Shown: piece after piece, positions 17,621 to 34,212 of the stretch
Numbering within the stretch: position 1 is the first letter of the stretch
How the letters are laid out: every line of letters begins with the position of its first letter
Assembly (NCBI GenBank): GCA_036704125.1
Contig: DATNQI010000069.1
Location: 6,170 to 70,169 of the forward strand
Direction of reading: 5' to 3'
DNA: 64,000 nucleotides
Source of the DNA: Pantanalinema sp.
Lineage (GTDB): Bacteria; Cyanobacteriota; Sericytochromatia; S15B-MN24; UBA4093
Position numbers and translations under genes: made by a program
The notes under the pieces: generated by a model
What the model saw: only the letters and a program-made list of their open reading frames with translations
The model's database searches: none
What the model was told of the DNA's origin: nothing

Positions 17621-18517
17621 GTGAAGACCAAAGCCTTTGCCTGGTTGTCGTCCACCGTCGTCCTCGCCGGCATCCTCGCCGGTTGCGGCATCAACTCGGG
17701 CGTCGGCATCAACGGCGACGCGACCGTCAGCAAGACCGCCAAGATCTTCGCGGACGGCAACGGCGTGGCCCGCCGGTTCGGCTACAAGTTCGTCGGCGGC
17801 CACCTGGGCATGCCCGGCATCGGTCTTCCCAACCGCGCGGTTCTCCCCGCGATGGCCGACCTCCGCACCAGCGGCAAGGTGAGCCCCGTGTACGACCAGG
17901 GCCAGCTCGGCGCCTGCACCGCCTTCGCGATGGGCAAGGGCCTCCGCGAGACCCTGACCAACATCTCCGGCAAGCCCTCGCAGTCCCTCAGCGCCATGTA
18001 CGTCTACTACAAGGAGCGCGAGCGGATGGGCACCATCAACGAGGACTCCGGCGCGATGATGGTCGACGGCATGGAGGTCCTCAAGGCCAACGGTGCCGCC
18101 CTCGACAGCACGATGCCCTACAACGTCGCCAAGTTCAAGGAAGCTCCCAGCGCCAAGGCCGAGGCCGAAGCCGCCGGCTTCAAGATCGAGGACTTCACCC
18201 TCCTCAACGGCCTCGACCAGCTCAAGGCCGAGCTCGCCAAGGGCAACCCCGCGGTCTTCGGCTACACCGTCTACAAGAGCTTCATGAGCCCGACCGTGGC
18301 CAAGACCGGCATGATGCCGATGCCCAAGCCCGGCGAGCAGATCCTCGGCGGCCACGCGGTCTTCATCGTCGGCTACGACGACGCCAAGCAGGTGCTCATC
18401 ATCAAGAACAGCTGGGGCGGCGGCTGGGGCGACAAGGGCTACTTCTACATGCCCTACGCCTACGTGACGGCCGACAAGGTCGACGAGATCTACGTCGCCA
18501 AGGCCAGCAACCGCTAA
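17621..18517 (+). CDS. Papain-like cysteine peptidase (MEROPS C1 family) lipoprotein
   Basis: GTG start at 17621 with AGGAG 10 nt upstream, preferred over the track ATG at 17534. Lipobox 'LAGC'. Catalytic Gln/Cys 'QGQLGACTAFAMG', His 'GGHAVFIVGYD', Asn/Trp 'NSWGGGWGDKGY'. Confidence 0.8.
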   Translation: MKTKAFAWLSSTVVLAGILAGCGINSGVGINGDATVSKTAKIFADGNGVARRFGYKFVGGHLGMPGIGLPNRAVLPAMADLRTSGKVSPVYDQGQLGACTAFAMGKGLRETLTNISGKPSQSLSAMYVYYKERERMGTINEDSGAMMVDGMEVLKANGAALDSTMPYNVAKFKEAPSAKAEAEAAGFKIEDFTLLNGLDQLKAELAKGNPAVFGYTVYKSFMSPTVAKTGMMPMPKPGEQILGGHAVFIVGYDDAKQVLIIKNSWGGGWGDKGYFYMPYAYVTADKVDEIYVAKASNR

Positions 18518-18534
18518 GCCTCACGCAGCTTGAA

Positions 18535-18575
18535 GTCGCCCCCGGACCTCGGTCCGGGGGCGACTCGTTTTATTC
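18535..18575 (+). terminator. Rho-independent terminator after the peptidase gene
   Basis: gtcgcccccggacc-tcg-ggtccgggggcgac perfect 14-bp stem followed by tcgTTTTaTT. Confidence 0.8.
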
Positions 18576-18683
18576 CCCGCCTCCCGGTGGGACGGGGTTA
18601 GGGTGAACGTCTAACGAAACTGCTCCTTCAAGCCGCTTACAGCGGCCACCACGACACATGCCCGGTTTTGTTAGATGTGAAAA

Positions 18684-19802
18684 TCAAGTTCCTTGCGCCC
18701 TCGATGGGGGCTCGGAACGTTTAGATCCCCCACCCCCGCCCCACCGGGGGGCGGGGAGAGGGGGCAAGGGGGACAGGGGGCGCAGGATGGACTGGGGGGA
18801 GAGGCCCTCCTTGAGGGCCAAGAGCGCGCCTGCGGCCTCGAGATAGGTGCCGACCTCGAGGACGCCCGACAGTCCCAGGCTGACGGGGTCCGCCTGCGAG
18901 GCGACGGCGTTGCCCTTCACCGCGATCACCGGGATCCCCCGGTGATGGGCCGCGAGCACCGGGATGCCCCCGCACGCCCCCCACGGCGCGACCACCGCGT
19001 CCACCTGCTCGAAAGCAAGATCGCCGCGCTCCTTCTGGGCGAGGGGCGCCAGGCGCGGCGCGCGGCGCAGGCCCTCCAGGATGCACGGCAAGAAGGTGAA
19101 GCCCACGGACTCGGCCGCCACCCTCGGGTCCACCCGCATGGGGCGATCCGGCGACTCGTAGGGGGCGTGCGCGCACGGCACCCCCAGGGCGCGCGTCACG
19201 ATGTGGGAGAGGATCGCCTCGAGTCCCCCGATGGGGTCCGGCCCAGAACCCGCCAGGTACGCTTCGGTCTCGGCCTCGGGCAGCTCCGGCATGCGGGTGA
19301 CCAGGGCGATCGCCGTGGCCCCTTGCGCCAACAGCGCCCGCGCCCCCTCGAGCAGGACCTCGGGGTTCTCGACCTCGCCCGAGCTCGCGCCCATGGCGCC
19401 GAGCACGATCCGAGATCGCACCGGCTCGCAGGTCGCTAGCCAGCCCACCATCGGCACCCCCTGGACCGCCCGGCAGGCATCGGCCGCCGTGAGCAGGTGC
19501 AGGAGCCCCTCGGGGTCAGCATCAACGATCGTCCGATCGATCAGGAGGCCCACCCGGTTCGCGCGCACCGGCCGCAGCACCCCTTCTCGCAGGCAGAAGC
19601 GATCGAGCATCCCGCCCTCCACGTACCAGACGTTGGACCGGGCCGCGAACAGGCTCGCGGCGTTGACGACGTTGGGGTGGGTGACGAGGCGATCGCAGGC
19701 GGCGGCCAGCAGGTTGGCCGCGGGCGTCGCATCGCCGGCGTAGCCTCCGACCTCGGCCCCGAGGCCGGTGGGGACGATCATGAGGGCGGTGAAGGGGGTC
19801 AT
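18684..19802 (-). CDS. Conserved hypothetical protein, DUF3326-like, with low-complexity Pro/Gly tail
   Basis: N-terminus 'MIVPTGLGAEVGGYAGDA' recalls the uncharacterised DUF3326 family known from cyanobacteria and plastid lineages (assignment from memory, not verified). ATG overlaps the upstream ORF stop (ATGA). Confidence 0.45.
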   Translation of the reverse strand: MTPFTALMIVPTGLGAEVGGYAGDATPAANLLAAACDRLVTHPNVVNAASLFAARSNVWYVEGGMLDRFCLREGVLRPVRANRVGLLIDRTIVDADPEGLLHLLTAADACRAVQGVPMVGWLATCEPVRSRIVLGAMGASSGEVENPEVLLEGARALLAQGATAIALVTRMPELPEAETEAYLAGSGPDPIGGLEAILSHIVTRALGVPCAHAPYESPDRPMRVDPRVAAESVGFTFLPCILEGLRRAPRLAPLAQKERGDLAFEQVDAVVAPWGACGGIPVLAAHHRGIPVIAVKGNAVASQADPVSLGLSGVLEVGTYLEAAGALLALKEGLSPQSILRPLSPLPPLPAPRWGGGGGSKRSEPPSRAQGT

Positions 19803-19963
19803 GACTGGAGGGCCGCCTCCACGCGCAGGCGATCGCCCTCGAGGGCCGTGACGGCCCAGCGCAGGGGGATGGCCCCTGTCTCGGCGCGCAGGCGATCCTC
19901 GATCCAGGCCGGATCGAGCGCTCCTTCGGGGCGGGGCAGGTGCACGGTGGCGTGACGGATCAT
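19799..19963 (-). CDS. Small hypothetical protein, 54 aa, translationally coupled between sigD and the DUF3326-like gene
   Basis: Hand-translated 'MIRHATVHLPRPEGALDPAWIEDRLRAETGAIPLRWAVTALEGDRLRVEAALQS'. ATG lies 2 nt after the sigD TGA; its own TGA overlaps the next ATG. Below the ORF-track size cutoff. Confidence 0.45.
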   Translation of the reverse strand: MIRHATVHLPRPEGALDPAWIEDRLRAETGAIPLRWAVTALEGDRLRVEAALQS

Positions 19964-19965
19964 GC

Positions 19966-20769
19966 TCAGGACTTGGCGCGAGCGGAGCGCGCGGGCTTGG
20001 CGGCGCCCTCGATGCCCAGATAGCGATTGATGGCGGTCCGCAGGCGCAGGGCCGCCTGGGTGTGGAGCTGGCAGACGCGCGACTCGGTGACGCCCAGGAC
20101 CTGGCCGATCTCCTTGAGGGTCAGGCCCTCGTGGTAGTAGAGGGCCAGCAGCTGCTTCTCGCGAGGGGGCAGGGCGTCGATGGCCGAGGCCAGCTGCTCG
20201 CGGAACTCGCGGTCCTCCAGCTGGGCGCTCGGGCCCGGCCGGTCGTCCACCATGGTGTCGACCCAGCTGAGGCTCTGGCCGTCCTCGCCCACCTGGACCA
20301 GCTCGTCGAGCGAGAGGAAGGGCGAGGTCGCAGCAGCCATCATGCCCGCGAGCTCGTCGGTCGAGACGCCCATGGCCTGGGCGATCTCGGCTTCGGTGGC
20401 GTGACGCCCGAGCGCGCCTTCCAGCTGGCTGATGACGGCCGAGAGCTCCCGGCCGCGCGCGCGCACCGAGCGCGGCACCCAGTCCTGGCTGCGCAGCTCG
20501 TCGATGATGGCCCCCCGGACCCGGGTCATGGCGAAGGTCTCGAACTTGACGCCGCGCTCGGGCGAGAACCGCTCGATGGCGTGGATCAGCCCGATGACGC
20601 CGTACCCGTAGAGGTCGTCGTGGTCGATGGTCGCAGGAAGGGTGACCGCCAGGCGGCCCACCACGTAACGGACCATGGGGGCATACTGGAGGATCAGCTG
20701 CTCGCGGCTCTCCCGGTCGCCCTCGGTCGTGTACTTCTTCCAGAGCTCAGCGGTGCCGGTGGCCGCCAT
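19966..20769 (-). CDS. fliA: Flagellar/motility sigma factor, FliA/SigD (sigma-28) family
   Basis: Region 2 'VRYVVGRL...[43 protein letters not shown]', region 4 'LSLDE...[33 protein letters not shown]'. RBS caggagg upstream. Confidence 0.85.
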   Translation of the reverse strand: [267 protein letters not shown]

Positions 20770-20902
20770 TCAACCTCCTGTGGAACGCGTGAGGGTCCCG
20801 CCCCATCATACCCGCGCAGAGCAAAGAGCATCCAACGAAACCAGGCATGTTACGACCGTTGGCCGCCGTCGGCGGCTTGAAGGAACAGCTTTGTTAGACG
20901 CG

Positions 20903-21235
20903 CTAGTCCTCGTGCATGGTCTGCTGAACGACCCGGGCCGCCTGGGCGAAGTCCATGGGCACGAAGCGCTCGGGGCGAGGGGTGAGATCCAGGGGCTCCA
21001 CCCCCCCGCTGGCCTCGGGCAGGACCACGTCGAAGGAGTTGCCCTTGGTCCCCCGCGCAGGGACGGCGGCGGCACCGAGGTAGTTGAGGCCGATGCCGAT
21101 GAAGCCGCCCACCAGCCCGCCCACCAGCCCGCGGATCACGGCCGTCTCCTCGGATACCCCCGAGAAGAGGGCAACCCCGAAGATCACGAAGGTGCTGATG
21201 ACCCCGAGCACCAGGCTCCAGTTGCGATCGCTCAC
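20903..21235 (-). CDS. Small membrane protein, 2 predicted TM helices, flagellar-operon associated, unknown function
   Basis: 'LVLGVISTFVIFGVALF' and 'LVGGLVGGFIGIGLNYLGAAAV' hydrophobic/Gly-rich segments. 4-nt overlap with upstream PilZ gene. Confidence 0.45.
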   Translation of the reverse strand: MSDRNWSLVLGVISTFVIFGVALFSGVSEETAVIRGLVGGLVGGFIGIGLNYLGAAAVPARGTKGNSFDVVLPEASGGVEPLDLTPRPERFVPMDFAQAARVVQQTMHED

Positions 21236-21945
21236 CGCTCGAGGCCCTCCCGATCGAGGCGGGCCTTGCGGGCCAGCTCGCGCTGGACGGCGAAGACGTA
21301 GCGCACGACGCGCGTACGGATGGCCTGGTCAAGCTTGCCGAAGTCGACCCCCATCAGGAACCGGGTCCCCTTGCGGGTCTGCACGCTGGAGGTCCGGACG
21401 ACGGCGCCGAAGACGAGGACCTCGCCCTCCTGGGGCAGCTCGAGGGTGATGCGAATCCGGCTGTTGCGCGGCAGGTCCATCGGCATCAAAAGCGAGCAAC
21501 CGCCGCCCGAGATGTCCTGGACGTAGGCCGGCAAGGGGGCGCCGTACTCGTCGGGGTCGACGCCCTCGGGCAGCTGCTCGCGCTGCAGGGCGATCGCCTC
21601 CTCGCTGAGCTCGGGCTCCACCTGGCACGGCAGCGAGGTCGGCACCCGGACGAACTCGCGGCGCTGCACGCGGCGCACGTCGTCCTCGGGCGGCAGGCCG
21701 AGCGACAGGCCCTCCGAGTTGACCACGACCACCGGGCACTTCAGGGTGTAGACCGCGTCGGCCAGGGTGAGCGAGACGGTGAGGTGGTCCACCTCCACCG
21801 GGATCTTGAGGCCGTGGCGCTGGGGAAGCCCCGTGTCGAAGGTCCGGTTCCCGACCCGCAGGACGACAGCCTGGCAAGGCACGGTGCGAGCGCCGACGGG
21901 AACGAGTATCTGGAGGGTCTGGCCAGGTTGAATCGGTAGCTTCAT
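21232..21945 (-). CDS. PilZ-domain c-di-GMP-binding protein (YcgR/flagellar-brake-like)
   Basis: PilZ motifs 'RREFVRV' (RxxxR) and 'DISGGGCSL' (D/NxSxxG), YcgR-like N-terminal domain. Directly downstream of flhA. Confidence 0.7.
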   Translation of the reverse strand: MKLPIQPGQTLQILVPVGARTVPCQAVVLRVGNRTFDTGLPQRHGLKIPVEVDHLTVSLTLADAVYTLKCPVVVVNSEGLSLGLPPEDDVRRVQRREFVRVPTSLPCQVEPELSEEAIALQREQLPEGVDPDEYGAPLPAYVQDISGGGCSLLMPMDLPRNSRIRITLELPQEGEVLVFGAVVRTSSVQTRKGTRFLMGVDFGKLDQAIRTRVVRYVFAVQRELARKARLDREGLER

Positions 21946-21957
21946 CCCAATGATCCC

Positions 21958-24051
21958 TTAGAGAGCGATCACGCCCAGCGAGCGAACTTCGGTCTGAGGC
22001 GGAACCACCTCATTGTAAGCGAGCACGGACAGGTTGGGGAACTTCCTCTCGATCAATCTTCTGAAAACCAGCCTGACCTTCGAGGAGCAGAGCACCACCG
22101 GCACGTGGCCCTGGGCCATCAGGCGCTCGACCAGCTCGCCCATGTTGCGGATGAGGCGGCTCGCGGTGCCGGGCTCCAGGGCGACGAAGGCCCCTTGATC
22201 GGTGACCTGGATGGAGTTGCCCAGGAGCTGCTCGAGGCCGGGGTCCAGGGTCACCACCGACAGGGCGCCGTCGTGGCCGAGGGCGGACTTGCAGATGGAG
22301 CGCGCGAGGGCCGCGCGCGCATGCTCGGTGAGCATGTCCAGGTCCTTGGTGAGGCGCGCGTTGGTGGCGAGGCTCTCGAGCACCGGCAAGAGGTCGCGGA
22401 CCGAGACCCGGTCCTTGAGGAGGTTCTGGAGCACCCGCTGGATGTCGCCGACCCCCAGAAGGTCGGGGACCAGCTCGGCGACCACCGCCGGCGAATCCTG
22501 CTTGATGTTGTCCAGGAGGCCCTGCACGTCCTGGCGGGTGAGGATCTCGGGGGCGTGGGCCTTGATCACCTCGGTCAGGTGGGTGGCCACCACGCTCGAC
22601 GCGTCGAAGACGGTGTAACCCGCAAGCTCCGCGCGCTCCTTGAGGTCCTCGGTGATCCAGACCGCCGGCAGGCCGAAGACCGGCTCGACCGTGGGGATGC
22701 CGTCGATCTGCTCGACGGCCATCCCGGCGTTCATGGCCATGTAGTGGTCGATCTGGATCTCGCTGCGGGCGATCTCGATGCCGCGCAGGTTGATGCGGTA
22801 CTCCTTGGGCTTGAGCTGGAGGTTGTCGCGCACGCGGATGGGAGGCAGCACCAGGCCCAGCTTGATAGCCGTCTGGCGCCGGATCATGGTGATGCGATCC
22901 AGCAGGTCGCCCCCCTGCGCCGCGTCCACCAGGGGGATCAGGCGATAGCCGATCTCGAGCTCCATGGGATCGACCTTCAGGAGGTTCATGACGTTCTCGG
23001 GGCCCTTGGGGGTCACCGCGGCCTCGGCCTCGCTGGCCCGGGCCGCCTCGGCCTCCTGGGCGACGGTCTGCTCGTTGCGGCGCAGGGCGAAGGCCAGCGC
23101 CCCGATCCCGCCGCCCACCATGAGGAAGGGCAGGGTGGGAAGGCCCGGCACCATGGCCATGGCCACGAGCATGGCCGAGACGATCATCAGGGGCTTGGGG
23201 TTCGCCAGCAGCTGGCGCGAGATGTTCTGGCCCAGGTTGACGTCGGAGGCCGCGCGCGAGACCAGGATGCCCGTGCCGGTCGAGATGAGCAGGGCCGGGA
23301 TCGCCGAGACCAGGCCGTCGCCGACCGTCAGCAGGGTGTAGGTCTGGAGGGCCTGCACGATGTCGCGGTGCTGCTGGAACACCCCGATCAGGATGCCGCC
23401 CACGATGTTGACGGCGGTGATGACCAGGCCCGCGACCGCGTCGCCCTTGGTGAACTTGGAGGCGCCGTCCATGGTGCCGTAGAAGTCGGCCTCCTGCTGG
23501 AGGGCCTTGCGGCGCTCCTTGGCCTGCTCCTCGTTGATCAGGCCCGCGTTGAGGTCGGCGTCGACCGCCATCTGCTTGCCCGGCATGGCGTCCAGGGTGA
23601 AGCGGGCGGCCACTTCCGAGATGCGGCCCGAGCCGTTGGTGATGACCACGAACTGGATGACGGTCAGGATCAAGAAGATGATGATCCCGACGACGTAGTT
23701 GCCCTGGATGACGAAGTTGCCGAAGGCCTCGACCACGTGACCGGCCTCGCCGTGCAGGAGGATCAGGCGCGCGGTCGAGACGTTCAGCGCGAGCCTAAAG
23801 AGCGTCAGCACCAGGAGCAGCGACGGGAAGGTGTTGAACTGGACGGGCTCCAGGACGTAGAGCGAGATGAGCAGCATCAAGAGGCTGCCCGTAATGTTCA
23901 GGACCAGGAAGACGTCCAGGATGGCGGTGGGCAAGGGGATGATCAGCATCCCCACGATCACCACCATCACGACCGCAAGCACCAGGTCGCTCTGCTGGAG
24001 CATCCGCGTGAGCCCGGAGGCTGGGGTCTTTACTGCTGCGCCGGTTGCCAT
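21958..24051 (-). CDS. flhA: Flagellar type III export apparatus protein FlhA
   Basis: 697 aa, 8 N-terminal TM helices, conserved 'FPSLLLVLTLFRLALNVSTARLIL' and FHIPEP cytoplasmic domain. Confidence 0.95.
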   Translation of the reverse strand: MATGAAVKTPASGLTRMLQQSDLVLAVVMVVIVGMLIIPLPTAILDVFLVLNITGSLLMLLISLYVLEPVQFNTFPSLLLVLTLFRLALNVSTARLILLHGEAGHVVEAFGNFVIQGNYVVGIIIFLILTVIQFVVITNGSGRISEVAARFTLDAMPGKQMAVDADLNAGLINEEQAKERRKALQQEADFYGTMDGASKFTKGDAVAGLVITAVNIVGGILIGVFQQHRDIVQALQTYTLLTVGDGLVSAIPALLISTGTGILVSRAASDVNLGQNISRQLLANPKPLMIVSAMLVAMAMVPGLPTLPFLMVGGGIGALAFALRRNEQTVAQEAEAARASEAEAAVTPKGPENVMNLLKVDPMELEIGYRLIPLVDAAQGGDLLDRITMIRRQTAIKLGLVLPPIRVRDNLQLKPKEYRINLRGIEIARSEIQIDHYMAMNAGMAVEQIDGIPTVEPVFGLPAVWITEDLKERAELAGYTVFDASSVVATHLTEVIKAHAPEILTRQDVQGLLDNIKQDSPAVVAELVPDLLGVGDIQRVLQNLLKDRVSVRDLLPVLESLATNARLTKDLDMLTEHARAALARSICKSALGHDGALSVVTLDPGLEQLLGNSIQVTDQGAFVALEPGTASRLIRNMGELVERLMAQGHVPVVLCSSKVRLVFRRLIERKFPNLSVLAYNEVVPPQTEVRSLGVIAL

Positions 24052-24239
24052 GATTGCATCTTACGCGCGATACCGTTTCCTTAAACGCACTGCCTGCCGC
24101 GCCTGGACCATTGTACAACCAAGCGAGGCGCAAGGGCGCTCTCCCGGACGAAAATTCGGGACTAAAGTCCCAAGGCGGCGGAGCTTGCGCCCCCTATAGT
24201 GATAAAATTACCGCGCCCGCACCACAAGGAGAAGCAGCC

Positions 24240-26297
24240 ATGCGCCTCACGCTCCGCGCCCGCATCTTTTCTGGCTTCCTGCTCATGATCGCGCTGATCG
24301 CGGCCCTCGGGGTGGCCTCGGTCTTCTCGGTCCAGCGGGTGCAGGGCCTTCTGGCCGCGACCTACCGGCAGGACCTGGCCGGCCTGAACCAGAGCGCCGA
24401 GACCCTCGCCCAGCTCCACAACCTGCGCGTGGGCGCCCACCGCTTCGTCGGCGCCCCCACCCCGCAGCGCGAGGAGAAGATCGCCGGGACCCTCGACGGC
24501 GACCTGACCGACTTCCAGAAGATGGTCACCGCGCTCGAGGGGCTCGACGCGGTCAAGGAAGGCCAGGTCGAGCTGAGCGCCTTCAAGGCCGAGACCGACG
24601 CCTTCATCTCCATCGTCAGGCAGGCCATGGTCGAGAAGCAGACGCGCGGGGCCGTCGAGGCCGCCTGGCTGATGGAGCGCGACGGGCGCGATCACTTCCT
24701 CAAGGCCGAAGAGGCCATCCAGCAGGTCCACGACCGGATCCAGGCCGAGAGCAAGGCGCGCTACGAGGCCTCGGTGCAAGACGCCCAGCGCTCGCTCGCG
24801 CTGACCGTCGGCTTCATCGTCGTCGCGCTCGGGGCGGCCCTCGCGATGGCGTGGGTCCTCGCCCGCTCCATCGTGAACCCCATCCAGCGCATGCAGCGCG
24901 CCGCCCAGGCGATCGCGCGAGGCGAACTGGACCAGGACGTGCGCGAACGTCGCCAGGACGAGATCGGAGCCATGGCGCAGAGCTTCCAGGACATGACCCG
25001 CTACCTCACGGAGGTCGCCACGGTCGCGAGCGCCATGAGCCAGGGGGACCTCAGCCGGAGCCTCACCCCCAAGAGCCCGAGCGACCGGCTCGGCACCGCC
25101 GTCGCCCAGATGGTCGAGAGCCTGCGCGGCATCGTCCAGCGGGTGCGCGCCGCCTCCGACGCGGTGGGCGCGGAGGCCCATGCGATCGCAAGCTCCAGCG
25201 CGGAGCTCGCGGCGTCGGTCGCCGTCCAGGCGTCCAGCGCCGAAGAGACCTCGGCGGCCATGGTGGAGATGAACGCCAGCCTCCACTCGGTCGACTCGAC
25301 CGTGCAGACCATGGATCGCAAGGTGGGCCTGGTTCGGGGCCAGTCGGACGCGCTGGCCGCGGCCGTCAGCCAGACCAGCAGCTCCATCTCGGAGCTTGCG
25401 GCCAGCATCCAGCAGGTGGCGGGCAACGTCTCGAACGCCAACCGGGTGGCCGAGGAGGCCTCCGGGGCGGCGCACGCCGGCGAAGAGGCCGTCAACCAGA
25501 CCGTGGCCGGCATGAAGGCGATCGCCGAGACCATGGGGGGCATCCGTGCCACCATCCAGCTGCTGGATCAGCGCTCGGGCGAGATCGGGGCGATCATCGA
25601 GGTGATCGACGACATCGCCGATCAGACCAACCTCCTGGCGCTCAACGCCGCCATCGAGGCCGCCCGCGCCGGCGACGCGGGCCGGGGCTTCGCGGTGGTC
25701 GCCGACGAGGTGCGCAAGCTCGCCGAGCGCTCGGCCAAGGCCACCAAGGAGATCGGCGACCTCATCCGGGCCATCCAGCAGGAAACCACCCAGGCGGTCG
25801 GCGTCACCCACGAGGGCGCCTCCAAGGTCGAAGAGGGCTCGCGGCTGGCGAGCCGTACCGGCGAGGCCCTCGGGCGGATGCGGGATGCGGCGAGCCACGT
25901 CGGCCGGCTCCTGGCCGAGGTCGCCACGGCCACCGACGAGCAGGCGCGCTCCGGCGGCGCGATCGTCTCGGCCACCGAGCAGATGGCTGCGATCAACGAC
26001 CAGGTCACCGGCGCGGTGGCCGAGATGGAGCAGCTCGCCCGGGGCGTCTCCTACGCCACCGGCGAGCAGCGCCAGGGCTCCGAGCAGGTCGTGGTCGCGG
26101 TCGAGAGCCTGAACCGCAGCTCGCGCGAGGCCTCGGCCGCCACCGATCAGGTCGCCCGCACGGCCGACGACCTCACCGAGCAGGCGCGCCGGCTCCAGGA
26201 GGCCATCTCCTTCTTCAAGCTCGACTCCCAGGATCCTCAGACGGCGCTGGGCGCCGAGCGTCCCCTCGCCCTCGCGGCGCCTCGCCCCTCACGATAA
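24240..26297 (+). CDS. Methyl-accepting chemotaxis protein (two-TM, HAMP, MA domain)
   Basis: Start set at ATG 24240 ([17 protein letters not shown] 24226-24231), not the track start 24054. MCP signalling hairpin '[44 protein letters not shown]'. Confidence 0.9.
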
Positions 26298-26306
26298 GGA
26301 GCCCCC

Positions 26307-27317
26307 ATGACCCTCTCTTCGACCCTTCCCTCCTGCCTGGCGCTCTTCACGGCGCTCATCCCCCTCTGGGCCCCGGCCGCCGAGGCCAAGCCCGAGGCCT
26401 CCGTCTCGGGGGTCGTCTTCGCCGACTACAGCGCCCCCACCTCGGGCCAGCTCGCGGGCTTCAACCTGACCCGGGCCTTCCTCACGGGCAAGGTCCGGAT
26501 CGACAACGTCTGGTCGGGCGTCATCACCCTCAACCCCTACGCCGAGCCCCTGCCTAGCGGCTCGACCGAGCCCCACGACGTCCTCCTCCAGAACGCCTAC
26601 CTCCAGGCGGACGGCCTCTATCCCGGCGGTAGCCTGCAGCTCGGGATGGTGACCCTGCCCTGGACCGAGTACGAGTATGGCTTCTGGGGCTACCGCATGC
26701 TGGGCACCGTGCCGCTCGCCGGCGGCATCGGCAAGGGCCAGACCTACGTCGGCACCTGGGACAAGGGCCTCAAGGCCCTGGGCAGCAACGGCCCGCTCGA
26801 CTACGCCCTGGCGGTCTACAACGGGGAGGGCTTCCGCTCCGGCGAGACCGACGGCTTCAAGTCCGCCCAGGGGCGCGTGAGCCTCGTCGCCCCCTTCGGC
26901 ATGGAGCTGACGGCGCTCGGCGAGCGGAGCCGGACGGCGGCCAAGTTCGTCAGCGATCGCGCCTCGGTCCTGCTGGGCTTCAGGAGCGACACCTTCCGCT
27001 GCGCCCTCCAGGGCACCCGCCTCTGGGACCAGGCCAGCGAGACAAGCCCCTTCGGAATGGGCCACGTCCTGAGCGCCTACGAAGTGGCCGCGCTGCCGAT
27101 CCCGGGCGTGCCGGGGGTCGAGTTGCTGCTGCGCGGCGACTACATCGAGCCGAGCGAGATCACCGCGGGCGACGAGCGCCTCGAGGCCATCGCGGGCCTC
27201 TCCTTCAAGCCCGCCAAGGGGGTCACCCTGGTGCTCGACAACCAGAACATCACCCGCTACGGCGCCACGACCACCAACGCCAACGTGGTCGCCCTGCACA
27301 CCAGCTTGGCGTTCTAA
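26307..27317 (+). CDS. Outer-membrane beta-barrel protein (porin-like)
   Basis: Signal peptide 'MTLSSTLPSCLALFTALIPLWAPAAEA', alternating amphipathic beta-strands, C-terminal 'ALHTSLAF' with terminal Phe. Confidence 0.6.
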   Translation: MTLSSTLPSCLALFTALIPLWAPAAEAKPEASVSGVVFADYSAPTSGQLAGFNLTRAFLTGKVRIDNVWSGVITLNPYAEPLPSGSTEPHDVLLQNAYLQADGLYPGGSLQLGMVTLPWTEYEYGFWGYRMLGTVPLAGGIGKGQTYVGTWDKGLKALGSNGPLDYALAVYNGEGFRSGETDGFKSAQGRVSLVAPFGMELTALGERSRTAAKFVSDRASVLLGFRSDTFRCALQGTRLWDQASETSPFGMGHVLSAYEVAALPIPGVPGVELLLRGDYIEPSEITAGDERLEAIAGLSFKPAKGVTLVLDNQNITRYGATTTNANVVALHTSLAF

Positions 27318-27378: not shown

Positions 27379-28497
27379 CTAGCCGTCGACCAGGGTGGTC
27401 AGGGCCGTAGGGATGGAGCCGAGGGGCAGGACCCGATCCACCACCCCCGCCTCGAAGACCGTGCGGGGCATGCCGTAGACGACGCTGGTGGCCTCGTCCT
27501 GGGCCCAGATCTCGCCGCCGCGGCTCTTGATGGCGCCAGCCCCCGCGGTGCCGTCGTTGCCCATGCCGGTCATGATGACCGCCAGCGCCTTGGGACCGAC
27601 CACCTGGGCGATCGAGGCGAAGAGGACGTCCACCGAGGGCTTGTGCCACGTCTTGGTGGTCGAGGCGTCCATGGTGCGGCAGACCAGGTGGCTGCCCTCC
27701 CGCTTCAGGACCAGGTGGGTCCCCGCCGGGGCGATCAGGGCCTTCTTGGGCTCCACCACCTCGCCGTCCACCGCCTCGCGGATGGTGAGCGGGCAGATGC
27801 GGTTGAGGCGCTCGGCCAGGGGCTTGGTGAAGCCGGGCGGCATGTGCTGGACCACCACGATCCCCACCGGGAAGTCGCCGGGCAGGGCGCTGAAGAGCGA
27901 CTGGAGCGCGGGGGGGCCGCCCGTCGAGATGCCGATCCCGATCACCTCGGGCACCCGCTGGCCCGAGCGCGCGGCCGGGGCGACCAGCAGGGGCTGAGGG
28001 GGCTTCGCGGGAGCCGGCGCCGAGGCCTGGTGGCCGAGCGTGGCCGCATGGACCGCGGCCGGGCCGTGACCACCCGACAGGCGACGGCGGGAGCGGCGCG
28101 AGTGGGCCGCCGCCCTCACCTTCTCGCGCAGCTCGCGCTCCACCCCGAGCACGTCGATCATGGACGACTCGGGCTTGGGCACGAAGTCGAAAGCCCCGAG
28201 GGAGAGGGCCGTCAGGGTGGCCGTCGCCCCGTTCTGGGTCAGGGTGCTCATCATGATGACCGGCAGCGGCATCTCGTCCATGACCCGCTTGAGGGCGGTC
28301 AAGCCGTCCATGACCGGCATCTCGATGTCCATGGTGACGACATCCGGCTGGAGGGTCTTGATCGCCTCGAGTCCCTGGGCGCCGTCTCCCACGCTGCCGA
28401 CGATCTCGATCTCGGGATCGGCCGCGAGCATGCGGGCGATCGCCCGGCGCATGAAGGCCGAGTCGTCGACGATCAGAACGCGAATGGAGTCGCTCAT
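27379..28497 (-). CDS. cheB: Chemotaxis response regulator protein-glutamate methylesterase CheB
   Basis: REC domain 'VLIVDDSAFMRR...VTMDIEMPVMDG' plus CheB_methylest motifs 'GISTGGPPAL', 'VVVQHMPPGFT', 'GMGNDG'. Confidence 0.95.
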   Translation of the reverse strand: MSDSIRVLIVDDSAFMRRAIARMLAADPEIEIVGSVGDGAQGLEAIKTLQPDVVTMDIEMPVMDGLTALKRVMDEMPLPVIMMSTLTQNGATATLTALSLGAFDFVPKPESSMIDVLGVERELREKVRAAAHSRRSRRRLSGGHGPAAVHAATLGHQASAPAPAKPPQPLLVAPAARSGQRVPEVIGIGISTGGPPALQSLFSALPGDFPVGIVVVQHMPPGFTKPLAERLNRICPLTIREAVDGEVVEPKKALIAPAGTHLVLKREGSHLVCRTMDASTTKTWHKPSVDVLFASIAQVVGPKALAVIMTGMGNDGTAGAGAIKSRGGEIWAQDEATSVVYGMPRTVFEAGVVDRVLPLGSIPTALTTLVDG

Positions 28498-32379: not shown

Positions 32380-34212
32380 TCAGGCTTCCTCTCTCAGTGG
32401 CTGAACAAGGGGGATGGACGGATCGGATGAAGAATCGGCGGCAGCGTCCGCTTCCTGGGCCACCAGGAGCTCCAGCGCCCGCTGGAACTGGCTCGCAGAG
32501 AAGCGGGCATCCTCGAAGGTCCGGCTCATGATGGCGAAGCAGGTCTCGAGATCGCCGCTCTGGCGGACCTGATGGAGCAGCACGCTGAACCGGCGCCAGT
32601 CGCCGTTGAAGGTGTGGACGCAGACCCCGTAGGCCTCGATCAGCTCGAGCGTCGGGAACGCCGCCTCGTGGCGCTGGACCTCGTCCAGGGTGATGCGATG
32701 GTCCCCCTGGAGGATCTCCGAAAGGGCAAGCAGACAGGCCGTACGCTCGGGCTGGGGGGCCGCGTCGATGAGCCAGGCATCCAAGGCCTGGGGGTCGGCG
32801 TTGAGCCAGTCGAAAGCCCGCTTCAGCCGGAAGTAGCGATACAGCAAAGGGGGCTCGGGGCAGCGCTCGCGCAGGTGCAGGATCTTGATGCGACCGAGCT
32901 TTTCCTCGGAGTCGCCGGCGCTCGCGAGCACCGCCTCGAGCCAGTAGATGTCGTCGGCGCTCGAGATGAACTGCTCGGCCAGGGCCTCCACGTCGCCCGC
33001 GCTGAGCTTGAGCTCCTTGAAGAGCAGGACGGCGGTCTCGTAGCGCTTCAGGCGGGCGCGATCCGTCAGGGTGTTGGCGAGGTGCTCGGCCCGCTCGAAG
33101 CTCAGATCCCCGAGCCCCAGCCGGAACCACAGCTCGCCCACCAGGCCGAGCACCTGGCTGCGCTCCTCGGACTCGACCCGCTTGAGGACCAGTCGATCGA
33201 TGTCGTCCACGCTCAGCCCCGAGCTCTGGAAGGCGCGCACCGCCGTCAGGTACCGCCCCAGCGCGCCGATCTCGGGCGCCCATTCCCGCAGCTGCATGAG
33301 GACCACCCGATCGACCGAGCGTCCCAGCTCGGTCATGCCCTTGAGGGCGCGATCGAGCCACTCCAGCTCGGCCTGGGAATCGGCGAAGGAGAGGTGGAAG
33401 GTGTCCAGATCGCCGACCTGGACCTCGTACTCCTCGAAGAGGTTGAGGGTCTTGGAGAGGCGGCGCACGGTGATCCGGTCGCGGACCCCCTCGACCAGGC
33501 CCCGGATGTCGTCGTAGCGCTCGATCCGCTTGACCCTGAGCGCCACAAGGTCCAGCAGCGCGGCCGTGGCGGCCATGGCCTCCTCGTCGACGACCCGATC
33601 GAGCAGCAAGGCGTCGAAGGAGGCGTCCACCGGCCCCAGGGCCTCGTAGGCCGACGCGCAGCCCAGGAAGGTCGCGATGGCGGGCGTGCCACCGGCACCG
33701 CCGAGGCGCTCGATCGCCTTCTGGAGGTTGTGGATCGCCACCGGGCGGCCGAGCTGCTGGTAGACGGAGGCCACCGTGCGAAGGGACTCCACGCTCACCC
33801 TGGCCGGCTCCGCGCCGAGCACGCCCAAGAGGGCGTCCAGGTCGTGAAGGTCCTTGGGTCGGGTCAGGTCGAAGACGCCGTAAAGGGTGGAGGCGGAGAT
33901 GCCCAGATCCAGCCAGGCGATCAGGCGCTCGGGGTCGTAGGCGAAGCCCTCGAGGCCCATCAGCGCGATCACCTCGACGCAGGCGTTGAACGAGGCCTCG
34001 TCGTGGACGCGCGCCTCGAACGCGCCGACGTCGGGATCGTCCCCCGCCCGCTCGCCGAAGTTGGTTCGGACGATCGGGATCAAGGCCCGCACGCGGTCCT
34101 CGGGGGCCGCCTCCTCGGCGCGCGAGGAAGCATGCCCGTCGAGCCCGCCGCGCCGCCGCAGGACGGCGGCGAAGGATGCCGTGATCCGGTCGAACCAACC
34201 CGTCGTCGACAT
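32380..34212 (-). CDS. Hypothetical 610-aa protein of unknown function embedded between cheW and cheX
   Basis: Long ORF that is codirectional and tightly packed (5-bp gaps to both neighbours). No TM segments or recognisable motifs; Leu/Ala/Arg/Glu-rich, probably all-helical. Confidence 0.6.
   Translation of the reverse strand: MSTTGWFDRITASFAAVLRRRGGLDGHASSRAEEAAPEDRVRALIPIVRTNFGERAGDDPDVGAFEARVHDEASFNACVEVIALMGLEGFAYDPERLIAWLDLGISASTLYGVFDLTRPKDLHDLDALLGVLGAEPARVSVESLRTVASVYQQLGRPVAIHNLQKAIERLGGAGGTPAIATFLGCASAYEALGPVDASFDALLLDRVVDEEAMAATAALLDLVALRVKRIERYDDIRGLVEGVRDRITVRRLSKTLNLFEEYEVQVGDLDTFHLSFADSQAELEWLDRALKGMTELGRSVDRVVLMQLREWAPEIGALGRYLTAVRAFQSSGLSVDDIDRLVLKRVESEERSQVLGLVGELWFRLGLGDLSFERAEHLANTLTDRARLKRYETAVLLFKELKLSAGDVEALAEQFISSADDIYWLEAVLASAGDSEEKLGRIKILHLRERCPEPPLLYRYFRLKRAFDWLNADPQALDAWLIDAAPQPERTACLLALSEILQGDHRITLDEVQRHEAAFPTLELIEAYGVCVHTFNGDWRRFSVLLHQVRQSGDLETCFAIMSRTFEDARFSASQFQRALELLVAQEADAAADSSSDPSIPLVQPLREEA

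Follow-up and report, generated by a model that had tools for sequence, protein, structure and literature searches.

In Bacillus subtilis, the flagellar sigma gene sigD is followed by swrB. Cyanobacteria carry a group of three genes known as 'cluster d', which consists of the ferredoxin gene fed3, a small open reading frame (ORF) and a gene of the DUF3326 family, and in which fed3 is reported to be essential in Synechocystis (Cassier-Chauvat and Chauvat, 2014, PMC4284462). A search of the literature on the function of PF11805, the Pfam family of DUF3326, and of Fed3 returned nothing past that review, and the sole functional hint in the literature is PavB, itself an uncharacterised DUF3326 protein of the pavettamine cluster (bioRxiv 10.64898/2026.06.12.731819). 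The present analysis concerns a 54-aa ORF and a DUF3326 gene that lie directly behind fliA, the gene for the sigma-28 factor, in a 64,000-nucleotide stretch of contig DATNQI010000069.1, hereafter called the window. I propose that these two genes encode a split two-module protein of general function that was inherited behind fliA, a reading to which I assign a probability of roughly 0.7.

All three genes are on the minus strand. fliA (19966-20769) encodes a 267-aa protein of the FliA/WhiG type that scores 259.2 bits against TIGR02479 (FliA_WhiG; cut-off 189.6), matches the families for sigma-70 regions 2, 3 and 4 (PF04542, PF04539 and PF04545), and is 95% identical to its orthologue in L001 (related loci are designated here by L numbers). 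Read from the sequence, the fliA stop codon is the TGA at 19966-19968. It is followed by a 2-nt spacer (19964-19965) without a Shine-Dalgarno sequence and then by the 54-aa ORF (19799-19963), whose ATG at 19963 is the earliest start codon available in its frame. The TGA of the small ORF (19799-19801) and the ATG of the DUF3326 gene (19800-19802) share an ATGA overlap at 19799-19802, and the DUF3326 gene (18684-19802) encodes 372 aa. The sequence thus bears out, in coordinates and strand, the tight three-gene unit described in the original prediction. The DUF3326-like identity proposed for the larger protein also holds, since it matches PF11805 over the full length of the profile (E=1e-104; 350.6 bits, cut-off 25; residues 5-339 on profile positions 1-336 of 337) and no other Pfam family. 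The two downstream proteins had in addition been called unannotated, which is inaccurate: NCBI lists them as 'hypothetical protein V6D00_11060' and 'DUF3326 domain-containing protein'.

A first question is whether the 54-aa ORF is a gene at all. It is short, it has no Shine-Dalgarno sequence, it diverges rapidly in the closest relatives, and its ratio of nonsynonymous to synonymous substitution rates (dN/dS), computed on codon alignments, reaches about 1 in saturated pairs, all of which would suit a spurious reading frame kept open between two genes by the high G+C content. Homologues were therefore sought by a six-frame ORF search of 94 sequences, namely the window and 93 loci, 80 of the latter from a species-level genome collection, with an iterated profile built from the versions of the window, L001, L004, L012 and Cyanobium. 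In 86 of the 94, the gene immediately preceding DUF3326 on its strand is a homologue, so that the small ORF is conserved in relatives, and every match occupied that position, with no off-target among about 22,000 six-frame ORFs. The groups that have it include Nostocales (Nostoc), Prochlorococcus, Synechococcus/Cyanobium and other Sericytochromatia. L001 and L004, whose DUF3326 proteins are respectively 88% and 60% identical to that of the window, have a 54-aa ORF with the same 4-nt overlap; the overlap recurs in L012 (DUF3326 57% identical), where the called ORF has 72 aa and the conserved 54 codons form its 3' end, and in the non-flagellated, oxygenic Cyanobium L009, where the ORF has 65 aa. 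Residues P33, L34, R35, W36, A37 and E49 are invariant in the alignment of the small proteins, the PLRWA motif being followed by a V/I-E strand (VEA in the window). Length, frame, position and the PLRWA...VE motif are thus kept from AT-rich Prochlorococcus to the window genome with its 69% G+C, and the G+C content at third codon positions (GC3) of the 54-aa ORF, 0.84, is in line with coding sequence in the window. A profile search of a large protein database gave 7253 clusters. The 120 of these clusters that were listed are 57-79 aa long and have neither a meaningful name nor a Pfam domain. Two small proteins of about 60 aa, P0125 and P0181, bear the Joint Genome Institute name 'CRISPR/Cas system endoribonuclease Cas6', which is probably a spurious automatic annotation, given the fixed pairing of the small family with DUF3326.

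The product of the 54-aa ORF is modelled by AlphaFold2 with a mean predicted local distance difference test score (pLDDT) of 96.4 as a three-stranded sheet packed on one helix, in the order beta-alpha-beta-beta (strands 2-10, 32-42 and 45-53; helix 18-29). Together with the same-strand position upstream of DUF3326 and the [PA]-L-R-W motif, this fold places the window protein in the small DUF3326-partner family. The versions from the window, Nostoc, Prochlorococcus and Synechococcus matched no Pfam or NCBIfam family at E<=10, no structure in the PDB was retrieved with E below 0.1 when the fold was used as query, and the 54 residues contain no hydrophobic membrane-spanning segment. Together with in-frame fusions in other phyla (see below), the conservation, the profile matches, the confident model and the GC3 value leave the non-gene explanation effectively refuted and highly improbable; as judged from sequence comparison, the 54-aa ORF is a real gene.

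The nature of this gene is indicated by DUF3326 proteins outside cyanobacteria, in which the small domain is usually joined in frame to the N-terminus of DUF3326. In L021, a metagenome-assembled genome (MAG) of Micromonosporaceae, the DUF3326 frame runs upstream through a PLRWFVSRV...VVVEV domain and a Pro/Ala-rich linker, and the same fused architecture is found in three metagenome contigs (L094-L096, 62% identity). When the window DUF3326 protein was compared by HMMER with 1.84 billion cluster representatives, 626 proteins reached E<=1e-10. The best 148 of these, which represent 50%-identity clusters, include 90 whose N-terminus is extended by 45 aa or more. The small-domain profile recognises 64 of these 90 extensions at E<=0.01, as against none of 900 shuffled decoys. 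Among the remaining extensions, several are rich in Ser/Thr or hydrophobic and, from their composition, may be transit or signal peptides. Conversely, a profile rebuilt from the fused N-termini recovers the window ORF (E=1.9e-9) and a Nostoc ORF (1e-7). One fused cluster is from Candidatus Marinimicrobia (MCH7613896.1), and the fused form also occurs in Actinomycetota and many unnamed lineages. Since the small domain is fused in frame to DUF3326 in other phyla, the 54-aa ORF most likely represents the N-terminal module of a two-module DUF3326 protein, here encoded by a gene of its own, and the fusions also name DUF3326, not FliA, as the partner of the small protein.

The larger module has the motifs that characterize its family, PTGxGxxxGGYAGD, HPNxxN and PCAHAP, and the residues invariant in an 18-sequence alignment include P11, T12, G13, G15, G19, G20, G23, D24, P43, N44, N47 and H212 (window numbering). 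In its AlphaFold2 model (mean pLDDT 84.8), the chain folds into two lobes of Rossmann-like alpha/beta type, and the first strand leads into a glycine-rich loop. Searches of the PDB added little: with the single DUF3326 sequence the best hit was an aspartate aminotransferase at E of about 0.1, and by fold the best E was 1.5e-3 with a template modelling score below 0.25, the matches being partial and lumazine-synthase-like. An apparent homology to RecA in a PDB profile search (2e-12) was dismissed as an artefact, six 8-bit matches having been summed in an artificial RecA concatemer. The C-terminal tail (about residues 345-372) is lineage-specific and modelled with low confidence. The window protein is 21 aa longer than its 351-aa orthologue in L001, and its last 30 or so residues, PLSPLPPLPAPRWGGGGGSKRSEPPSRAQGT, fall in this low-confidence part. 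A 30-nt inverted repeat with 87% complementarity (18574-18603 and 18728-18757) has one arm in the 3' coding end of the DUF3326 gene and the other past a repeat element of about 75 nt described below. The 3' end of the window DUF3326 gene may thus have been remodelled.

What the two modules do together can be approached through the genes that surround them elsewhere. A gene for a 2Fe-2S ferredoxin of the Fed3 type lies upstream of the pair, on the same strand, in 66 of the 80 genome loci, those of oxygenic cyanobacteria. The label 'DUF650' given to the middle gene of this cluster (PMC4284462) was not reproduced, no Pfam match being found at E<=10. In four other Sericytochromatia (L007, L037, L100 and L101), Fur-FeoA-FeoB genes are upstream of the pair, as direct neighbours in three of them and beyond an opposite-strand gene in L101, and a gene for an ArsA/Get3-like ATPase is found further downstream. 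The Fed3 context in oxygenic cyanobacteria and the Fur-FeoA-FeoB context in Sericytochromatia suggest an iron or Fe-S theme for DUF3326, which by its gene context is probably an enzyme-like protein with a ferredoxin or iron link. The fused DUF3326 gene of L099 stands alone, and that of L021 (L021:942-2372) is preceded by a ketosynthase-III-like gene and followed by one for an FMN-dependent dehydrogenase, a setting that looks like a small-molecule pathway. A phmmer search of the 64-kb window with the ferredoxin that adjoins the pair in Cyanobium L009 found no Fed3-like ORF.

These observations can be assembled into the following picture. In most lineages outside the cyanobacteria, the beta-alpha-beta-beta domain, a linker and the two-lobed Rossmann-like body are parts of one chain, while Cyanobacteria and Sericytochromatia encode the small domain in an ORF of its own, immediately before DUF3326. 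The two products would then form a heteromer equivalent to the fused form. From the gene contexts, its reaction would be a general, enzyme-like one with a link to ferredoxin or iron metabolism and probably a bound cofactor, and the function of the pair would not be specific to the flagellum. A flagellated, Sericytochromatia-like clade would have inherited the pair behind fliA, with cheW in between in some of its members.

The original prediction was different: it held that the two proteins occupy the slot of swrB behind sigD and could be new motility regulators, either an anti-sigma factor acting on FliA or an activator of type III secretion like SwrB. The packing behind fliA is indeed tight, and six or more distinct lineages of one clade keep the order sigma-(cheW)-small ORF-DUF3326 although both flanks have changed. 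The order cheA-cheC-cheD-orf-sigma-cheW-DUF3326 of L012 and L098 is similar to that at the end of the fla/che operon of B. subtilis. Against this, the pair is near-universal in oxygenic cyanobacteria that have no flagella and is reported in plants, other Sericytochromatia keep it beside feoAB, and it exists in fused form in Marinimicrobia and Actinomycetota. The presence of the pair across non-flagellated cyanobacteria makes a motility-specific role unlikely. Nor does the small protein itself look the part: it is predicted to be a compact domain whose fusions designate DUF3326 as its partner, it matches neither FlgM nor any other Pfam family at E<=10, and it has no hydrophobic membrane segment. 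I therefore consider it unlikely that the pair are motility regulators. What stands of the proposal is the tight packing, the reality of the small gene and the linkage to fliA and che genes; the regulatory function is unsupported.

The linkage to fliA is itself confined. A sigma-28 gene is upstream of the pair only in the window, L001-L003, L097 (the closest relative of the window), L014, L004-L006, L012 and L098. The gene order is sigma, cheW, small ORF, DUF3326 in L004-L006 and L012, and cheA, cheC, cheD, orf, sigma, cheW, fused DUF3326 in L098. DUF3326 is thus linked to motility genes in relatives of the window, within what is, as judged by the 67-95% identity of the full-length FliA proteins to that of the window, one flagellated clade. 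Much of the synteny is plain inheritance, since the window, L001, L004 and L012 also share unrelated convergent genes downstream, for an NHL-repeat protein, an aminotransferase of class IV and RuvB. The source MAG is labelled Pantanalinema sp. (third-party annotation, NCBI), that is, as a member of an oxygenic genus of Leptolyngbyaceae. A full apparatus for flagella and chemotaxis is encoded in the window, the named relative closest to it is 'Candidatus Sericytochromatia bacterium' L014 (DUF3326 72% identical), and the small protein of a genuine Pantanalinema, P0199, is of the canonical cyanobacterial type; on these grounds the label is probably wrong.

Two sets of observations weigh against a pair of purely general function. 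The first is the persistence of the sigma-(cheW)-DUF3326 adjacency, which outlasts changes upstream (flhA-pilZ, cheA-C-D or a divergent uvrC) and downstream (the NHL/aminotransferase/RuvB genes or an HD-PilZ gene), and which is kept in L004 and L098 where both flanks have changed. This is not obvious under pure drift and could reflect selection for co-expression with motility genes; a motility tie specific to the clade is conceivable because the adjacency survives the change of both flanks. The second is the rate at which the small ORF evolves. Between the window and L001, amino-acid identity is 48% for the small ORF, as against 95% for fliA and 88% for DUF3326, so that within the fliA-linked clade the two adjacent genes change far more slowly than the small ORF, and the small protein is highly conserved in Nostocales, unlike in this clade. 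The dN/dS between L004 and L012 is 0.45 for the small ORF (fliA, 0.13; DUF3326, 0.22); between the window and L097 it is 0.56 (fliA, 0.07; DUF3326, 0.18), a value that comes from 28 substitutions, too few to establish purifying selection alone. Small-ORF values in unsaturated pairs thus lie at 0.45-0.56, below 1, and the constraint is weaker yet real. The fast evolution in the window clade hints at relaxed or changed constraint.

Two ways of accommodating these observations were considered. One retains a general biochemical role and adds that its product (a metabolite, a cofactor or a modification) is needed when flagella are built or used in this clade, which would account for a lasting co-expression with fliA and cheW. 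The adjacency is stable across the clade while DUF3326 has diverged to 53% identity, and DUF3326 proteins belong to small-molecule pathways elsewhere (PavB, bioRxiv 10.64898/2026.06.12.731819; the fused L021). Nothing ties the chemistry of DUF3326 to flagella, however, and the unrelated downstream genes shared by the four clade genomes indicate that much of the synteny is inherited; I regard this version as doubtful. The other supposes that in one clade the sigma-28 operon captured the ferredoxin/iron-linked DUF3326 module, which then took on a role related to motility: it might provide a metabolite or a modification that flagellar assembly or chemotaxis requires, or the small domain might have a second function as a factor coupled to FliA. 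Such a capture would, if it had occurred, explain both the durable sigma-(cheW)-DUF3326 adjacency and the unusually fast evolution of the small protein, and it is rather a long shot. A split two-module protein of general function, inherited behind fliA, is the reading retained here.

How the window pair is expressed can be proposed from the junctions. As noted above, the 54-aa ORF is preceded by no ribosome-binding site; in L001, the spacer between fliA and the small ORF has 31 nt and includes GGAG, and the window misses about 29 nt of it, while the same junction is a GTGA overlap in L014 and a 4-nt overlap in L097. With no ribosome-binding site and a start only 2 nt past the fliA stop, the small ORF of the window is, from its sequence, probably translated by termination-reinitiation from the ribosomes that have read fliA. 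A GGAGG is present 14-18 nt upstream of the DUF3326 ATG. The pair would share a transcript with fliA, initiated at a candidate promoter ahead of fliA and/or arising by read-through from flhA. The small ORF would be translated through reinitiation after the fliA stop and DUF3326 next through the ATGA overlap, which would favour matched amounts of the two proteins. The junction between small ORF and DUF3326 is also tight in the rest of the fliA-linked clade, in the Sericytochromatia with the FeoB context and in most Synechococcus/Cyanobium loci, but the gap amounts to tens of nucleotides in Prochlorococcus and typically to 50-300 nt in Nostocales. Since the junction varies by lineage in this way, translational coupling is a lineage trait and not a defining property of the pair.

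The candidate promoter contains a -10-like hexamer, TATGAT (20805-20810, minus strand, in the context GGTATGATGGGG), about 35 nt upstream of the fliA ATG. A -10-like box at this place is conserved in three genomes, as GGTATGATGGGG in L001 and as GGTATAATCGGG in L014, which is why fliA, the small ORF and DUF3326 may also be a transcription unit of their own. A strict sigma-70 consensus scan of 18400-24400 found no promoter. At the other end of the unit, a 14-bp GC-rich hairpin (18534-18565) between DUF3326 and a convergent gene for a papain-family (C1) peptidase marks a likely terminator region, with a T-run on the plus strand only. An Rfam search of 18400-21400 gave nothing close to any gathering score.

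Upstream of fliA and co-directional with it are orf110 (20903-21235, minus strand), which directly precedes fliA and encodes 110 aa with hydrophobic stretches, a gene for a PilZ protein (21232-21945, minus strand) and flhA (21958-24051, minus strand), so that flhA, pilZ, orf110, fliA, the small ORF and DUF3326 form a co-directional block of six genes (24051 down to 18684). Two genes on the plus strand follow: one for a methyl-accepting chemotaxis protein (24054-26297), which splits the flhA block from the other che and flagellar genes, and a 336-aa ORF (26307-27317) with coding-like GC3 and no Pfam match at E<=1e-5, which further separates the block from the che genes. The minus-strand che and flagellar genes resume at 27379. 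Beyond that point are cheB, cheR, cheA, cheY, cheX, cheW, a gene for another methyl-accepting chemotaxis protein and one gene without a Pfam match, as well as Pfam-confirmed flagellar genes that include flhB, fliR, fliQ, fliO, fliN, fliM, motB, motA, flgE and fliF; a 610-aa ORF in the chemotaxis region (32380-34212, minus strand) also has coding-like GC3 and no Pfam match at E<=1e-5. The three-gene unit had been placed at the distal end of a single flagellar super-operon. Because of the two interrupting genes on the opposite strand, it closes the six-gene flhA block instead. Within this block, orf110, which matches no Pfam family, is kept in L001 (79% identity) and L012 (44%) with a common C-terminal AARVVQQ motif, and a flagellum-specific accessory factor is more plausibly sought in it than in either the 54-aa protein or DUF3326.

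The unit is also bracketed by a repeat. Two inverted copies of a hairpin element of about 75 nt (core GTCTAACNAARCTGYTCCTTCAAGCCGC), one at 18608-18680 on the plus strand and one at 20830-20900 on the minus strand, between orf110 and the fliA promoter region, enclose exactly fliA, the small ORF and DUF3326, with two copies observed in the window against none expected. Both copies end in inverted repeats and enclose a GC hairpin, which gives the element the look of a miniature inverted-repeat transposable element or of a repetitive extragenic palindromic element. The 28-nt pattern of the repeat occurs only twice in the window, a 13-nt core of that pattern in none of 96 loci, and the element matches no Rfam family. 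L001 and L014 lack it at the corresponding positions, and their gap between orf110 and fliA is 49 nt as against 133 nt in the window. The idea of a mobile or invertible fliA-DUF3326 cassette was rejected, since L001 and L014 keep the same gene order without the repeats.

The practical outcome is that a tempting annotation as a flagellar regulator, which is probably wrong, is replaced by a testable one. The window pair belongs, as an ordinary member, to a known, uncharacterised family, and what is unusual is its operon context; its linkage to fliA matters mainly as a synteny marker in flagellated, non-photosynthetic relatives of cyanobacteria. The useful result is the recognition of a previously uncurated second module of DUF3326, a separate protein of about 55-65 aa in cyanobacteria and an N-terminal domain elsewhere. 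DUF3326 is widespread, occurring in cyanobacteria, where it adjoins fed3, in several other phyla and, as reported, in plants. Defining the small family, which has 7253 profile matches and no Pfam or NCBIfam model, would improve the annotation of thousands of genomes, and functional studies of DUF3326 and Fed3 should treat the two modules jointly.

Among the systems described so far, the likeness of the window to sigD-swrB of B. subtilis is one of position alone, directly downstream of a flagellar sigma gene: a SwrB-like protein encoded after sigD is a single-pass membrane protein, and the 54-aa protein, which fits in position, has no membrane segment and a compact predicted fold. Compared with the anti-sigma-28 factor FlgM, it shares no Pfam or NCBIfam family, and the fusions indicate DUF3326 as its partner. 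PavB of the pavABC pavettamine cluster, likened here by description, shares the Pfam domain and is described as Rossmann-like, but it belongs to a secondary-metabolite cluster of a Burkholderia-type endophyte (bioRxiv 10.64898/2026.06.12.731819). The long single-chain DUF3326 proteins of Marinimicrobia (MCH7613896.1), L021 and L098 have the same two modules in the same N-to-C order, joined by a linker of about 20-35 aa where the window has two ORFs with an ATGA overlap, and the fused gene of L098 sits behind sigma-28 and cheW as the window pair sits behind fliA. In the fed3 cluster d of cyanobacteria (PMC4284462), the two downstream genes have the order and strand of the window pair and share its PLRWA...VEA motif, down to the same 4-nt overlap in Cyanobium. 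The small protein is far less conserved in the window clade than in Nostocales, and in the position held there by the gene for a 2Fe-2S ferredoxin, the window has fliA.

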